From the NCBI GenBank assembly GCA_014630515.1, contig GCA_014630515.1_4091.1: 21,344 nt of DNA; one strand, given 5' to 3'. This DNA is from a phage. Position 1 is the first letter of the stretch, and each line of letters starts with the position of its first letter. The translations under genes were made by a program, and so were the position numbers. Shown piece by piece: positions 4,075 to 21,344 of this stretch. The notes beneath the pieces were generated by a model. It was not told where the DNA came from. It searched no databases and saw nothing but the letters and a program-made list of their open reading frames with translations.

Positions 4075-4166
4075 GATACACTTCCGCACCCTATGGGTCA
4101 GTGAGTTATCTCTCAATGGATATATAATAGCAAAGGGACTGACCGGAGTCAATCCCTTTTTTAATC
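4075..4166 (-). repeat. repeat element B: conserved leader motif, embedded promoter, GC hairpin with T-run
   Basis: core GCACCCTATGGGTCAGTGAG; hairpin AAAGGGACTGACCGGAGTCAATCCC plus T6; minus-strand TTGACT, 17 bp, TATTAT (4124-4152). Confidence 0.6.
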
Positions 4167-5086: not shown

Positions 5087-5305
5087 TTAGATAATATTAT
5101 ATTTCTTAAAATAAAATGCGTCCTGTGTTGGTTGATACTCAATGCCATTGCCGTTATTGACTTCAACTAATAAACCTTTGTCAATAAGTTTTTTAATAGT
5201 ACGATACCCTTGTTGAAAATTGGTAAAATGTGAATCATTACGAAAGGTATAACCGTGCTTAACTGCTTCATCAATAGTTTTCTTTTCGATTTTAGATAAT
5301 TTCAT
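5087..5305 (-). CDS. hypothetical protein (72 aa)
   Basis: ATG 5303-5305; same promoter and leader as 4787..5029, which produces the identical artefactual N-termini in the track. Confidence 0.65.
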   Translation of the reverse strand: MKLSKIEKKTIDEAVKHGYTFRNDSHFTNFQQGYRTIKKLIDKGLLVEVNNGNGIEYQPTQDAFYFKKYNII

Positions 5306-5333
5306 TTTGTTTCTCCCGTGTTGGTATATGTAC

Positions 5334-5362
5334 ATAGTACTAAAACATTTGAGTACTGTCAA
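5334..5362 (-). promoter_or_regulatory. sigma70-type promoter (TACTAT subtype)
   Basis: minus strand TTGACA, 17 bp, TACTAT; duplicate of 5058-5086. Confidence 0.5.
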
Positions 5363-5613
5363 CGTGATATTAGTTTTATTTTCTTATTATATTGTTGGTG
5401 TTCATATAGGTTTATCTTTCCTGTGTTCTCTATTACTATTCTGTTGTTAGTGTCTACATCGATTACACGCAGTTTCCCGTTGCTTAACTTCCTTGGTAAT
5501 AGGTTACCATTAATAAACTCATTAGCAAGCTGTACGGCCTTTGTGATGATTCTCTGTGGTGCTTTATAGTGTACCCGTAAGATATTATCTTTATATAGTT
5601 GAACCTTAATCAT
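5359..5613 (-). CDS. hypothetical protein (84 aa)
   Basis: ATG 5611-5613; AGGAC SD; lies just downstream of the 5626-5652 terminator. Confidence 0.6.
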   Translation of the reverse strand: MIKVQLYKDNILRVHYKAPQRIITKAVQLANEFINGNLLPRKLSNGKLRVIDVDTNNRIVIENTGKINLYEHQQYNKKIKLISR

Positions 5614-7075: not shown

Positions 7076-7160
7076 TAGATACATTTATGCACCCGGTGGG
7101 CTGATTTGTTTCTATGCGTATATAATAGCAAAGGGACTGACCGGAGTCAATCCCTTTTTC
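7076..7160 (-). repeat. repeat element C: conserved leader motif, embedded promoter, GC hairpin with T-run
   Basis: core GCACCCGGTGGGCT; hairpin AAAGGGACTGACCGGAGTCAATCCC plus T5; minus-strand TTGACT, 17 bp, TATTAT (7122-7150). Confidence 0.6.
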
Positions 7161-11805: not shown

Positions 11806-11892
11806 TTACACTTCCGCACCCGGTGGGCTAGTGAGCTATCTCTCAATGAATATATAATAGCAAAATGGCTGACCGAAGTCAACCACTTTTTT
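11806..11892 (-). repeat. repeat element D: conserved leader motif, embedded promoter, variant hairpin
   Basis: core GCACCCGGTGGGCTAGTGAG; hairpin TGGCTGACCGAAGTCAACCA with compensatory changes relative to A-C; T6 on plus strand; minus-strand TTGACT, 17 bp, TATTAT (11854-11882). Confidence 0.6.
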
Positions 11893-14552: not shown

Positions 14553-14601
14553 TTTAGTTTCCTCTTAGTGGGGAGAACCATTTCTCCCCTTGATGTAATG
14601 T

Positions 14602-14629
14602 ATTATACTTTATCTGATTTACTTTGCAA
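14602..14629 (-). promoter_or_regulatory. early sigma70-type promoter with 5' stem-loop
   Basis: minus strand TTGCAA, 16 bp, TATAAT. Confidence 0.6.
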
Positions 14630-14637
14630 GTACTTTT

Positions 14638-14865
14638 TTAATTTAATTCATCCAGGCAAAGGATACGTTCTACACCTAAATCAGTTAAGCTAATAGACGG
14701 CACTTGATAGGTTTCAATGTATTCTACACTAGCGTACTGACCAAACTCATCAACTGACCAGTTATACATTGCAAAATGTAGTTCCGCACCTTTCTTGTTA
14801 GTGATAACCGCTACTACTGCCGCATTGCCAACTGTACCAGATACGCGAGTGATTACGATAGCCAT
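14638..14865 (-). CDS. hypothetical protein (75 aa)
   Basis: ATG 14863-14865; AGGAA SD; track start 14922 lies in leader. Confidence 0.6.
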   Translation of the reverse strand: MAIVITRVSGTVGNAAVVAVITNKKGAELHFAMYNWSVDEFGQYASVEYIETYQVPSISLTDLGVERILCLDELN

Positions 14866-14948: not shown

Positions 14949-15102
14949 GTACTTTTTATTACTTTTTGCAAAATACTTTAAACGCCCTCAATCGCATTCT
15001 AACGACCTTAACGCCACCAGCTAGGGCGACGCATCAGATAATCAGTTTAATGCGTTAGAATCGATTCTAGGCGGTGCTAGTGGACTGGAATACTATAGAC
15101 AC

Positions 15103-15129
15103 AAAAAAGCCCACTGTTTAAGGTGGGCT
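15103..15129 (-). terminator. rho-independent terminator (minus strand)
   Basis: minus strand AGCCCAC-cttaaaca-GTGGGCT followed by TTTTTTGTGTC; downstream of 15151..15633. Confidence 0.7.
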
Positions 15130-15150
15130 AGTGATTCAGTACTTTAATTG

Positions 15151-15633
15151 TTATGCTTCAACTTTGCGATGAGCTTCGATCCATTCCTCGCGAGTCATAC
15201 CGCTTTCTTTGATAGCGTCCAGTACTACCGCAATGCAGTTACCGCGTACAGGAATCATATGTTCTTCCCCGTTATCAAGTACTACAGTAACACGTTCTTG
15301 AATCCATTTTTTAGGTTTAGATTCTGGCTTATCTTCACCATACTTAACCGCCAGGGCTTTATGTGCCATTTCTACAACTACTTCCAGATCCAATCCAGAC
15401 ACCGCCGCCTGGATACTTTCAATTGTTGCTTGCAGTTCGGCTTCACGGGCTTTTTTCTGTTCTTCCAGTTCTGCTACCTTTTTGGCTTGCAGTTCTTTAG
15501 CTTCACTGTACGCAATGTTAAAATTGTTGCGTACTGCTTTCATGGTATCGTTATCCAGGTCAGCCAGCAATTCAGCAGCAATAACAGTATCGTTTGAAAT
15601 CAGTGCTTTCAGGAATGATTTTACATTAGCCAT
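15151..15633 (-). CDS. hypothetical protein (160 aa), Ala/Glu/Lys-rich central region
   Basis: ATG 15631-15633; GAGGA SD 8 nt upstream; long ~120-nt leader. Confidence 0.7.
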   Translation of the reverse strand: MANVKSFLKALISNDTVIAAELLADLDNDTMKAVRNNFNIAYSEAKELQAKKVAELEEQKKAREAELQATIESIQAAVSGLDLEVVVEMAHKALAVKYGEDKPESKPKKWIQERVTVVLDNGEEHMIPVRGNCIAVVLDAIKESGMTREEWIEAHRKVEA

Positions 15634-15756: not shown

Positions 15757-15784
15757 ATTCTACGCCTTTTTGTGGTAATGTCAA
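15757..15784 (-). promoter_or_regulatory. sigma70-type promoter
   Basis: minus strand TTGACA, 16 bp, TAGAAT; followed by a diverged copy of the duplicated leader block (15665-15750). Confidence 0.5.
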
Positions 15785-15832: not shown

Positions 15833-15863
15833 AAAACAAAAAAGCCCACTGTATAAGTGGGCT
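15833..15863 (-). terminator. rho-independent terminator (minus strand)
   Basis: minus strand AGCCCAC-ttataca-GTGGGCT followed by TTTTTTGTTTTTG; same module as 15103-15129. Confidence 0.7.
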
Positions 15864-15880
15864 AGTGATTCAGTACTATA

Positions 15881-16180
15881 TTATAAACAATTAATTACGC
15901 CAGTGAATGTAACTTTCTCTGTATCCATTACAGTGACAGAACCGCGTTTACTTTTTGCATCGTAATAGATGGTCGTGCTACCCTGATCATCTTCTTCATG
16001 GTACGGGCCATTAGCAAACATTGCAGGGGCCAGTTCCAGGGATTTGGTAACGATCTCAGCCGTTTCCTCGTTAGTCATTGCAACAGTGCACTGAATGAAT
16101 TTTTCTTTCGGTACATCAACGGAAGCGTTAACAGCGAAAGAGGAAACAGATAAAGCCAGGGCGATGATTGCAGTTTTCAT
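15881..16180 (-). CDS. small secreted or periplasmic protein with N-terminal signal peptide (99 aa)
   Basis: ATG 16178-16180; N-terminus MKTAIIALALSVSSFAVNA has Lys then hydrophobic core then AxA-like site. Confidence 0.7.
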   Translation of the reverse strand: MKTAIIALALSVSSFAVNASVDVPKEKFIQCTVAMTNEETAEIVTKSLELAPAMFANGPYHEEDDQGSTTIYYDAKSKRGSVTVMDTEKVTFTGVINCL

Positions 16181-16230
16181 TTGTATATCCTTTGTTAGTA
16201 CTAGGGAGTATTCCCGATTAGATGTAAAAC

Positions 16231-16258
16231 ATTATACGCATTTAAAAACTATTATCAA
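16231..16258 (-). promoter_or_regulatory. early sigma70-type promoter
   Basis: minus strand TTGATA, 16 bp, TATAAT. Confidence 0.5.
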
Positions 16259-16293
16259 GTACTTTAATATAAAAGTATTTGAAAAAAAAAGTC

Positions 16294-16322
16294 TTGACAA
16301 CTGCATCCAGTACTGGCATAAT
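16294..16322 (+). promoter_or_regulatory. plus-strand sigma70-type promoter
   Basis: plus strand TTGACA, 17 bp, CATAAT; only clear plus-strand promoter inside the gene array. Confidence 0.5.
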
Positions 16323-16328
16323 ACTTAC

Positions 16329-16425
16329 ATAAAGACGAGATAGTCACTAACCCACAGGGTGCATAGATCCGTCTATTAAATGATTCAGTACTGCAAAATA
16401 AAGGGGATCGTTTGATCCCCTCTGT
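16329..16425 (+). ncRNA. candidate small RNA (plus strand) carrying the conserved leader motif
   Basis: starts ~7 nt after the 16294-16322 promoter, contains GAGATAGTCACTAACCCACAGGGTGC, ends at hairpin 16402-16421; no SD-preceded ORF. Confidence 0.3.
16393..16421 (-). terminator. rho-independent terminator (minus strand)
   Basis: minus strand AGGGGATC-aaac-GATCCCCT followed by TTTATTTTG; 5 nt after stop of 16427..16648. Confidence 0.65.
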
Positions 16426-16426
16426 A

Positions 16427-16648
16427 TTACTTAGTAAGATATAAACAAAAATCACCTTTCTTTGCTACGCCGCCAGTGTAACGCGATGAATAGTTAGAAA
16501 CGTCTTGCACTTCTGCAATGACGAGCGTATCATCATTTATTTCGTCGCAAAAACATACTGCGGGATCTTCTACGCCAATATTGTCAGCATGTGCCCGCAT
16601 AGATTTAACCAGTGCTTCAAGCTGGGAAAGAGTAGTGATATTAGCCAT
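16427..16648 (-). CDS. hypothetical protein (73 aa)
   Basis: ATG 16646-16648; AAGGAG SD 8 nt upstream. Confidence 0.7.
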   Translation of the reverse strand: MANITTLSQLEALVKSMRAHADNIGVEDPAVCFCDEINDDTLVIAEVQDVSNYSSRYTGGVAKKGDFCLYLTK

Positions 16649-16699
16649 TGTAAAACTCCTTATTAGTGGGGAGAACCATTTCTCCCCTTGATGTAAACT

Positions 16700-16727
16700 A
16701 TTATACAGTACTGGAAACTAATTGCAA
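16700..16727 (-). promoter_or_regulatory. early sigma70-type promoter with 5' stem-loop
   Basis: minus strand TTGCAA, 16 bp, TATAAT. Confidence 0.6.
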
Positions 16728-16735
16728 GTACTTTT

Positions 16736-16939
16736 TTAATTTAATTGCTTTAAAACATAATCAAAGACACCACGCACATCATTGATCATCGCCTGGCGGT
16801 TAGCAGGTAACGCATCAGGATCGCCACTATCCCAGGCATTAATGAAGCCACCTAAATCATGGAATACTTTATTCCGTAACCCGATCAACTGCAATTCTTT
16901 TTCTTCAAGCTCTTTGATACGTTTAATTAAATCACTCAT
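16736..16939 (-). CDS. hypothetical protein (67 aa)
   Basis: ATG 16937-16939; GAGGA SD overlaps stop of 16957..17241; start region GAGGATTATCTAATGAGT is duplicated at 17241. Confidence 0.6.
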   Translation of the reverse strand: MSDLIKRIKELEEKELQLIGLRNKVFHDLGGFINAWDSGDPDALPANRQAMINDVRGVFDYVLKQLN

Positions 16940-19663: not shown

Positions 19664-19898
19664 TACTTTCTACATGTACTTTTAAAATAGTTTTCTTTCT
19701 ATATAGGGGAACTATTATTCAGTACTATCATTCAGTACTGAATCAACCAAATCACTACTACACCCCATAAAACGGCCTCAGACGCATTCTAACGCATTAA
19801 TACACCTAAGCTATACATTTGCACCATTCCAATCATTCCAGGGCTTTACGGGCCGTTTAAACGCGTTAAATTATTTTCAATTATTTTGTTTTTAGGTA

Positions 19899-19926
19899 TT
19901 GACTTGATCCTGAAAAAGCGTATAAT
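19899..19926 (+). promoter_or_regulatory. plus-strand sigma70-type promoter
   Basis: plus strand TTGACT, 16 bp, TATAAT; followed by conserved leader motif GACGCGAGAAAGCGGATACCCCAGGGGGTGGGAAG. Confidence 0.55.
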
Positions 19927-20113
19927 TACTACATAGACGCGAGAAAGCGGATACCCCAGGGGGTGGGAAGATCCGTCCAAAATTCAAGATATAAAAAAAG
20001 GATAGACTCCCGCACCCTAGCAGGTTAACGCACTTTCTCAGTACTGAATTATAGTACCATAGTCCGGCCCAGGATGGCAAGCAAATTAATTAAAACTTTT
20101 TTCATCCAGGGTA

Positions 20114-20141
20114 TTGCTTTATTTTTCCAGTACTGTATAAT
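20114..20141 (+). promoter_or_regulatory. plus-strand sigma70-type promoter
   Basis: plus strand TTGCTT, 16 bp, TATAAT; followed by leader motif GTCGAGAAAGACTCAAGCCCACCGGGTGCATAG. Confidence 0.5.
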
Positions 20142-20239
20142 AGTTCCATCAAGTCGAGAAAGACTCAAGCCCACCGGGTGCATAGTTACGCCCAAAATTC
20201 AGTACTGAAAAAAATTTTTAAAAATATCCGTCCAGGCCG

Positions 20240-20268
20240 TTGACATTGCCCCCAGTTTATAAGATAAT
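20240..20268 (+). promoter_or_regulatory. plus-strand sigma70-type promoter
   Basis: plus strand TTGACA, 17 bp, GATAAT; points into the iteron-like region. Confidence 0.5.
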
Positions 20269-20359
20269 GATTCCAGATTCAGAAAAATCTAACTCCAGAT
20301 ACTGCGGGGAAACTATCCCCACGCGGTAGGGGAACTATTGGAAAAAACAAAATAAAATT

Positions 20360-20480
20360 TTGATTTAGCCGTCTATACTTCCAGACGTGTAACCATCTAG
20401 CCGTTTAGCCGTCCAAACGTCTAGCCATCCAGCCATCCAGAAATCTAGACGTTTAGCCGTCTAGATGGATAGCCATCTTT
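20360..20480. repeat. iteron-like direct-repeat array
   Basis: 7 copies of YAGCCRTY within ~115 bp (TTTAGCCGTC at 20364, 20404, 20452); also CTAGACGT/CTAGATGG and ACTTCCAGAC repeats; preceded by A-rich tract 20341-20360. Confidence 0.5.
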
Positions 20481-20879
20481 ACTTCCAGACTTCTGGAGGG
20501 CTAGACATATCTACGTCCAAAATCCATCCAGGGTAACTACGCCCAAAATCCGTCAGTACTATACCATAGATCTATCTTTTGAAAGGGAGTATTCAGTACT
20601 GCCATCATAGCCCTCACTATGTTACCCTAGGAGGATGAAGACTATCATGTAGTACTGAATACTGTTAGAGGGAATCCACCAGCACAAGCTGGTGGCATAA
20701 TGCTTTAGATTAAAATCAGTACTGACACCATTCTGTTAATATCAGTACTGTTATTACGATTTTCATATGAGGTTCAAAAAGATGTACCACCACAGGAGGA
20801 ACTATCTTTTCTGTACTGTCTCACGACAGGAGGTAGAGTAAATGAATTGTTCGCAGCAACTCATCTCTCTATGTAGAAC

Positions 20880-20907
20880 ATTATACAGTACTGAATCATA
20901 ATGTCAA
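20880..20907 (-). promoter_or_regulatory. minus-strand sigma70-type promoter in ORF-poor region
   Basis: minus strand TTGACA, 16 bp, TATAAT; no ORF over 60 aa downstream. Confidence 0.5.
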
Positions 20908-21242
20908 TAACTTTCTTTCATTATTCAGTACTGATATTCTTGAGAACTACCCGTCTACAAACATCATTATATCCCACAAATCATAAACGTCCCAACGTAA
21001 ATTTCAACTTTCGAAGATCCAACTTTTATTTCATAGGTACTCCAAAATTTTTAGGATCGAGATTTAGGATGGAGTACTAACCAACTTTTTGCTGGAGCCT
21101 CAAGGGGTAATGGAATTTTACCCCGACGGGTAAAAGGGTAATTGTAATTAAGGTGAAAGTAATAATTCAGTACTAATCATTGCGTGATTACTTTTGATTA
21201 CATTTGATGTAATTTGAAAAATGGAAAAGGAGCTTGGAAACT

Positions 21243-21268
21243 AAAAAGTACGGCAGACTTCCTCTGCC
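21243..21268 (-). terminator. possible rho-independent terminator (minus strand)
   Basis: minus strand GGCAG-aggaagt-CTGCC followed by GTACTTTTTAG. Confidence 0.4.
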
Positions 21269-21271
21269 TAC

Positions 21272-21344
21272 TTAGTGACATATCAGTACTGCTACGTTCT
21301 TGATTAAACGTGAACATTCCTGTACTCTAGTACTCACTACTGAT
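21272..21344 (-). CDS. possible 3' end of a minus-strand gene entering from the right edge (partial)
   Basis: open frame from window edge to TAA 21272-21274, followed 4 nt later by the 21243-21268 hairpin; too short to assess. Confidence 0.3.
   Translation of the reverse strand, partial: SVVSTRVQECSRLIKNVAVLICH

Follow-up and report, generated by a model that had tools for sequence, protein, structure and literature searches.

A conserved, self-contained gene for a small, probably exported beta-sheet protein in the terminal repeat of an Asteriusvirus jumbo phage

The 21,344-nucleotide (nt) phage contig GCA_014630515.1_4091.1 (GenBank assembly GCA_014630515.1), referred to here over its whole length as the window, carries on its minus strand at 15881..16180 a gene of 99 codons whose predicted product begins with a signal peptide. 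Databases already list the gene, as a hypothetical protein, and its family is uncharacterised, with neither a Pfam model nor a solved structural relative. The features of the gene, of its transcription unit, and of the terminators that flank it are as follows (pI, isoelectric point; dG, folding free energy; z, z score).

15881..16180, minus strand: coding sequence of 99 codons plus stop, ATG start; orthologue of gp276 of Escherichia phage 121Q, 99% identical
16258..16231, minus strand: promoter of the sigma-70 type, TTGATA-16-TATAAT, with 11/12 consensus matches, in a copy (16218-16269) of repeated module D1
16181..16224, minus strand: predicted 5' untranslated region (UTR) of ~44 nt, the transcription start being placed from the -10 position
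16124..16180, minus strand: predicted signal peptide, codons 1-19; n-region MK, h-region TAIIALALSVSSFAV, c-region V-N-A
15884..16123, minus strand: predicted mature domain of ~80 amino acids (aa), acidic, pI 4.5, modelled as six antiparallel beta strands
15833..15863, minus strand: intrinsic terminator of the unit, 8-bp GC-rich stem at 15863-15843 and T-run at 15842-15833
16395..16423, minus strand: terminator hairpin of the upstream gene (16648..16427), dG -19, z -5.7
15098..15129, minus strand: terminator of the downstream neighbour (promoter 15784..15757, gene 15633..15151), a near-copy of the unit terminator

The gene makes up a monocistronic unit, with a promoter and a terminator of its own on either side. 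A sequence-only reading of the window had described an insulated single-gene unit of this kind, with its own promoter and a strong terminator just downstream, and these elements held up. The promoter (-35 TTGATA at 16258-16253, a 16-nt spacer, and -10 TATAAT at 16236-16231), a Shine-Dalgarno sequence (AAGGA, 16192-16188), and the terminator (AGCCCACttataCAGTGGGCT followed by TTTTTGTTTT; dG -12.9, z -2.8) are all present and are conserved in orthologous loci. The promoter was kept in nine of nine such loci, and the terminator lay directly 3' of the stop codon in seven of the nine, with a conserved stem and a variable loop; in the related phages fEgEco12 and EJP2, an extra small gene precedes the terminator. 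Within the 5' UTR, a GGGA/UCCC hairpin (16215-16204) is weak and not significant (dG -5.3, z -0.5). Orthologues carry a strong GGGGGAGCGGTTCCCCC hairpin at the matching place, the hairpin of the repeated module being weak before this gene in the window phage and 121Q and strong in other orthologues.

Upstream, the unit is insulated by the 16395..16423 hairpin (~16423-16400, followed by UUUAUUUU), which is stronger than the unit terminator. Its stem differs between the window and 121Q on the one side and fEgEco12 on the other, and the hairpin is still formed, as judged by reading the pairing by eye. The earlier reading had instead assigned upstream closure to a terminator at 15103-15129. That terminator is real, but because transcription runs from right to left, it (15129..15108) closes the downstream gene 15633..15151 and not the upstream unit. 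The terminator regions 15833-15880 and 15098-15150 are paralogous modules, each consisting of AGTACTGAATCACT and then AGCCCAC...GTGGGCT-T6, with stems that are conserved and loops that vary among phages. Having its own promoter is the rule in the window and not a special property of this gene: the same promoter module recurs in at least 23 copies, and minus-strand promoters with a consensus match of 10/12 or better number more than 40. Classical terminators with a GC stem and a T-run are rare, these two being the only ones of their type in the window, and it is because canonical terminators are so scarce that the insulation of this gene from promoter to terminator is real and distinctive.

The predicted N-terminus reads MKTAIIALALSVSSFAVNA-SVD, with cleavage predicted before Ser20, and combines a basic n-region, a hydrophobic core of 15 residues, and small residues at -3 and -1, as expected of a Sec substrate cut by signal peptidase I. 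Its hydrophobicity maximum (2.47 over 10 residues) is the highest among credible genes of the window. In a hydrophobicity scan of all minus-strand open reading frames (ORFs), higher-scoring N-termini occurred only in ORFs that lack a Shine-Dalgarno sequence and overlap longer ORFs. Among credible genes, then, this is the only product with a clear signal peptide, as had been claimed from the sequence alone. The claim that the signal is of the Sec type gained comparative support: an export signal was found at the N-terminus of all 25 family representatives, in the form of a signal-peptidase-I site in 21 and of a lipobox in four (P0013, P0020, P0022, and P0023), and each of the 25 has an even number of cysteines in its mature part. 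Export and a periplasmic disulfide both have strong comparative support because the family switches between signal-peptidase-I and lipoprotein signals yet keeps its cysteine pair. The window protein itself has no cysteine before residue 31 and is thus not of the bacterial lipoprotein type. In both AlphaFold models described below, the predicted local distance difference test (pLDDT) score was <50 for the signal peptide, placing it outside the fold. Judging from these sequence features, the product is very probably exported through Sec. The 20 signal-peptide codons showed only three differences over ~16 synonymous sites between the window and most orthologues, compared with a synonymous divergence (dS) of 1.2-1.9 in the mature part; this pattern points to either selection on the 5' end of the mRNA or a recombination boundary.

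The mature part was modelled with high confidence as a six-stranded, all-beta domain with two invariant cysteines. Two AlphaFold runs, with inputs of 8 and 17 sequences, agreed: residues 1-23/24 were unstructured, and residues 29-98 formed six strands (29-37, 43-50, 60-64, 67-74, 79-85, and 90-98) with pLDDT >90. In the alignment of 17 sequences, the distant ones of which share only 26-38% identity with the window protein, positions C31, G94, and C98 were invariant, and the most conserved stretches were a hairpin, YHEED-xG-STT, and the motif G-x-[IV]-T-[IV]-MD. From the meander topology of the model, Cys31 at the start of strand 1 should adjoin Cys98 at the end of strand 6, and a C31-C98 disulfide would close the sheet because these two strand ends are neighbours in the meander. 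Solved structures gave no significant match to the model; the best Foldseek matches were LolA-type open beta-barrels, at E values (E) of at least 0.014 and TM of ~0.3. Pairwise ratios of nonsynonymous to synonymous divergence (dN/dS) among orthologues were 0.09-0.19, at dS up to ~1.8, and because of these low ratios we take the gene to be functional. The sequence comparisons mark it as a real gene under purifying selection, and the idea of a chance ORF, or of a gene in decay whose N-terminus happens to be hydrophobic, for which its small size alone speaks, is negligible against these ratios, the confident structure prediction, motifs kept across relatives at 26-38% identity, and a frameshifted 3' end in only one of ten orthologues (CMSTMSU, an 'UNVERIFIED' record).

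The DNA around the gene points to a jumbo phage of E. coli as its source. Over 901 bases, identity is 95.5% with Escherichia phage 121Q and 85-89% with ~35 other jumbo phages of the Asteriusvirus group. The whole window aligned in reverse complement to positions 1-21835 of BAU.Micro_ELP-22, and its counterpart in fEgEco12 is the first ~21 kb of that genome. In fEgEco12, a direct terminal repeat of 20,993 bp was determined by PhageTerm and confirmed by restriction digests (PMC13070987), and the repeat of phage Sharanji is 20,668 bp (PMC11895373). From these correspondences, the window is identified as essentially one direct terminal repeat, of ~21 kb, from a 121Q-like jumbo phage (Asteriusvirus). 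All genes of the window are oriented from right to left, and the physical genome end is the right end of the window; the fEgEco12 orthologue, g10 (5284-5583), is the 10th gene from the genome end. Lying inside the direct terminal repeat, the gene is thus present in two copies per genome and, with either end in front, would belong to the ~21 kb that enter the cell first.

The gene content of the terminal repeat is mosaic, and relatives cover only 49-87% of the window. At the locus itself, an additional gene, g11, separates the signal-peptide gene of fEgEco12 from its terminator, and upstream there is an additional promoter-gene cassette (g09) that is absent from the window and from 121Q (sites compared: L001 2767-2997 and 3403-3639; window 15864-15880 and 16181-16230). 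Rfam and tRNA scans of the window were empty. Between the window gene and 121Q gp276 we found no substantial difference; they are the same gene in closely related phages, with a shared promoter, 5' UTR, terminator, and flanking genes.

Family searches reached well beyond these orthologues. The protein matched the phrog_31669 profile over its full length (E 1.7e-62, residues 1-99 of 99). A word-indexed search matched Asteriusvirus orthologues only, and an exhaustive profile search against 1.84 billion representatives returned 15 proteins at E up to 1e-3, 14 of them 96-149 aa long; the exception was a 1099-aa protein that matched over short stretches only. By tblastn, the family was found in 51 phage records, 37 of which are phages of the Asteriusvirus group with 68-99% identity. 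Distant copies (30-39% identity) occur in other jumbo phages, namely the Klebsiella phages Muenster, fENko-Kae01, and phiKp_21, the Salmonella Munch group (Munch, 7t3, SE_PL, and PHA46), and Erwinia phage Hallingskeid, and the family is also present in 140-kb phages of the Vequintavirinae type (SSBI34, A73, A5-4, W70, UPEC06, and LTH01). The relatives in other jumbo phages are located in terminal repeats or early-gene arrays, the copies of Muenster and fENko-Kae01 being annotated inside terminal repeats. A scan of IMG/VR with a narrower alignment gave one locus. The Pfam family DUF4949 was matched by one of 17 members at 15 bits (E 0.028; gathering threshold 31.1), which we treated as chance.

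Longer relatives are encoded in Enterobacteriaceae chromosomes, and some are lipoproteins of 152-153 aa. They lie in compact prophage-like elements with the gene order serine recombinase, ~12 small genes of unknown function, terS, terL, portal, and capsid; one such element is inserted in yegD, and another relative is in a recombinase-flanked island. The E. coli element is rare, being found in 1-2 of 5,426 complete genomes. In three contexts (E. coli, E. fergusonii, and the Enterobacter group), translation of the family gene is coupled to that of an upstream gene encoding another exported protein, and in a Citrobacter element it closely abuts an upstream gene without an export signal. The coupled clusters (L016 5699-6375, L007 5624-6462, and L003 5049-6459) have one or two such upstream genes, whose products carry a lipoprotein signal or a signal peptide and a cysteine near each end, so that together they make up a small envelope-protein cluster. 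Two of these partners (L016 5699-6004 and L003 5609-5998) were considered as paralogues of the family and rejected, as profile comparison gave E 0.2 and a probability of 0.3% or aligned the signal peptide only. The island of the Enterobacter/Klebsiella context (L016 1771-4603) encodes an N6/N4 methyltransferase and two serine recombinases, together with the Pfam domains MC6 and CTD10, which are annotated as belonging to conflict systems. Among the neighbours of the prophage relatives, no gene of known function was recognised, holins and endolysins included.

We tentatively propose that the protein functions in superinfection exclusion or in protection against lysis from without, a possibility that draws on analogy. 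Upon entry of the terminal repeat, host RNA polymerase would probably transcribe the gene from its near-consensus sigma-70 promoter. The product would be exported by Sec and cut by signal peptidase I after Ala19, and periplasmic oxidation would form the Cys31-Cys98 bond that closes a small sheet or barrel. The acidic periplasmic protein would then act as a stoichiometric binder that protects the envelope of the newly infected cell from a second attack. Such a role is suggested by the precedent of T4 Spackle, with its matching size, charge, and disulfide design; by beta-sheet lysozyme inhibitors, which work by loop insertion; by the fact that soluble and lipoprotein versions exist side by side, as they do in PliC/MliC; and by the occurrence of the family in prophage-like elements and its horizontal spread between phage groups. 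Small exported proteins of prophage-like elements are a known location for exclusion functions. Like accessory exclusion genes, the family moves from one phage group to another, unrelated one; all of this evidence for a function is circumstantial.

The likeness to T4 Spackle (gp61.3) is one of design. Both are phage proteins, Spackle being early, that are periplasmic or predicted to be so, with a cleavable signal peptide and two cysteines, and the mature parts are close in size and charge (75 aa and pI 4.6 in Spackle against 80 aa and pI 4.5 here). The Spackle pattern, a mature protein of ~75 aa with one disulfide behind a cleavable signal for the periplasm, recurs in the window protein, the disulfide being predicted. 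The two differ in that there is no sequence homology beyond the signal peptide, the folds are unlike, and lysozyme binding is a feature of Spackle. A second set of analogues, the lysozyme inhibitors PliC/MliC, PliG, PliI, and Ivy of the bacterial periplasm, are likewise small, exported, and mostly beta-sheet. The PliC/MliC family has soluble (signal peptidase I) and lipoprotein forms, and the family of the window protein also has both. At the level of Pfam homology or of matching fold, the window protein does not belong with PliC/MliC, PliG, or Ivy. In its strongly conserved beta-hairpin, YHEED-xG-STT, it resembles the loop-inserting inhibitors. Bacterial beta-sheet lysozyme inhibitors insert an inter-strand loop into the active site, and Spackle, a compact alpha-helical bundle, binds a basic patch of the gp5 lysozyme (PMC7677548). 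By analogy with these, the conserved acidic hairpin might plug the peptidoglycan hydrolase of incoming phage tails, in a manner functionally like that of T4 Spackle or PliC/MliC on an unrelated fold; this is the specific version that we favour, although we regard it as unlikely. Equally doubtful at present is the broader reading in which the protein would be the first of a new family, with a structurally unprecedented six-stranded beta domain closed by a disulfide and the conserved acidic YHEED-xG-STT hairpin, made up of periplasmic superinfection-exclusion factors that jumbo phages express from their terminal repeats as a first-wave shield and that are reused as lipoproteins in prophage-like elements. 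On that reading, the proteins might inhibit a cell-wall-degrading enzyme or another periplasmic step of incoming tails and so be a convergent Spackle analogue, which is again improbable.

Several points weigh against a role in exclusion or envelope protection. The earlier reading had offered superinfection exclusion, lysis timing, or envelope modification as possible roles; no characterised protein matched the window protein in sequence or in fold, and searches of Pfam, NCBIfam, and PADLOC gave no significant match; PHROG 31669 is labelled 'unknown function'. Early expression is plausible, as judged only from the host-type promoter and the terminal-repeat position. The resemblance to Spackle in size and charge is weak evidence, many small periplasmic proteins being acidic. 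In the literature, we found no paper linking Asteriusvirus to superinfection exclusion, and the fEgEco12 paper (PMC13070987), the Sharanji paper (PMC11895373), and a jumbo-phage review do not mention the gene, the promoters, or signal peptides. A sizeable share of the probability belongs to functions other than those considered here.

Among the alternatives, the protein might serve host takeover or anti-defence by binding a target in the host periplasm, such as a protease, a murein enzyme, a sensor of envelope stress, or the Tol-Pal or Lol machinery, and so condition the envelope for a long infection, with no action on other phages. Its location in an early array among ~60 small takeover-type genes fits this, as does the conservation of the family across jumbo genera with <30% overall nucleotide identity to fEgEco12 (PMC13070987, Table 2). 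The LolA-type barrels that head the Foldseek matches would also fit, but those matches are not significant, the analysis as a whole gave no candidate target, and the lipoproteins of the prophage-like elements agree with exclusion at least as well. We consider this alternative rather unlikely.

A receptor or another outer-membrane protein could instead be blocked from the periplasmic side, as Llp of T5 and Cor jam FhuA, leaving progeny and rival phages unable to adsorb productively. Llp, the product of a lytic phage, and Cor are small envelope lipoproteins that face the periplasm, carry an intramolecular disulfide, and act by binding, without catalysis (PMC9586334). Four of 25 relatives of the window protein are lipoproteins, and one of them, the prophage relative P0022, has a faint match to Cor (E 8e-4), but the match covers residues 1-36 only, which are the lipoprotein signal. 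The window protein itself has no lipobox, and it shows no sequence similarity to the Llp or Cor families in PHROG or Pfam. Whereas llp and cor lie beside a receptor-binding protein gene, its gene is in an early-gene array with small early genes as neighbours. Receptor jamming of this kind is, on these grounds, decidedly unlikely.

A regulator of lysis timing, such as a periplasmic antiholin or an endolysin or spanin regulator like T4 RI, would share the periplasmic location, and the T4 sp gene was found through lysis phenotypes, according to an annotation note. Set against this are the early-type promoter, a position far from any lysis gene, the lack of a membrane segment beyond the cleavable signal, and prophage-element neighbours that are not recognisable holins or endolysins, which together make the idea very unlikely.

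Descent from T4 Spackle itself, with inhibition of a gp5-type tail lysozyme in the same way, might be expected from the GenBank record of fEgEco12, which labels the orthologue g10 'protein spackle', and from the similar length, signal peptide, two cysteines, and pI. BLASTP against T4 Spackle gave E 2.2, however, and hhalign aligned only 14 signal-peptide columns (probability 23%). The match to phrog_1586, 'spackle periplasmic', was weak (E 0.029) and confined to residues 1-40, and the Pfam family T4_Spackle (PF25676) was matched by one of 17 members at E 0.27. Sequence searches of the PDB listed no Spackle chain; the one or two matches that they did list were weak and unrelated, with E 0.6-0.9 at best. 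The window protein is all-beta in the models, whereas Spackle is helical. As homology, the proposal is refuted, and we regard it as extremely unlikely; by sequence comparison, the 'protein spackle' label on the fEgEco12 orthologue rests on signal-peptide similarity only.

The terminal repeat contains further features beside the signal-peptide gene. On the plus strand at 16294-16322 lies a divergent promoter, TTGACA-17-CATAAT, with TG before the -10 as in an extended -10. It is an inverted copy of the second promoter class of the window, of which a copy in the usual orientation is found at 9493-9465. It is followed by ~95 conserved nt with two hairpins (z -3.1), ending at the bidirectional terminator at 16400-16423, itself a hairpin. 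The divergent copy is kept in 121Q, in fEgEco12, and in five of six other orthologous loci, with a terminator stem that differs and still pairs, as read by eye. The region 16294-16425 on the plus strand is a candidate small RNA or antisense transcript beside the signal-peptide gene; Rfam had no match for it.

Repeats are abundant in the window. An 8-bp palindrome, CAGTACTG, occurs 42 times, compared with 0.27 expected from shuffles (for example, at 16308-16315, 16386-16393, and 16706-16713), and the density of AGTACT is 6.2 per kb in the terminal repeat, compared with 2.3 per kb across 50 kb from the middle of the fEgEco12 genome. Many copies of CAGTACTG are in promoter spacers just upstream of the -10, and others are beside terminators; the palindrome could possibly be an operator for a regulator of early promoters. 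A repeated module of ~50-110 nt (families D1-D8) was found at at least 23 sites, before most small genes (for example, 14589-14640, 16218-16269, and 16687-16738), with the order promoter, GC-rich hairpin at the transcript start (such as GGGGAGAACCATTTCTCCCC), and Shine-Dalgarno sequence. A hairpin with a 12-bp stem, AAAGGGATTGACTCCGGTCAGTCCCTTT, has four minus-strand copies (2211-2238, 4132-4159, 7130-7157, and 11862-11889), embedded in an 85-nt repeat (family D14). It contains the -35 TTGACT of the following promoter, so that terminator and promoter appear fused. Toward the physical genome end, a gene-poor stretch of ~1.7 kb (~19700 to 21344) holds an array with 8-bp periodicity at 20370-20521, made of units such as CGTCTAGC and CATCCAGC (family D9), and fEgEco12 has no annotated gene before position 1689. 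The array may have to do with packaging or with the genome terminus.

As it stands, the gene encodes an ordinary-looking small exported phage protein, a feature that is well verified and would not surprise a specialist, and the 'protein spackle' label of its fEgEco12 orthologue should not be propagated. If envelope protection proved true, it would matter for the design of phage cocktails, in which exclusion between therapeutic phages lowers the combined effect, and the protein would give a second answer, structurally unrelated to Spackle, to the problem for which T4 uses Spackle. The ~60-gene terminal-repeat arrays of Asteriusvirus and RaK2-like jumbo phages, annotated almost throughout as 'hypothetical', would then have a gene with an assigned function for the first time.

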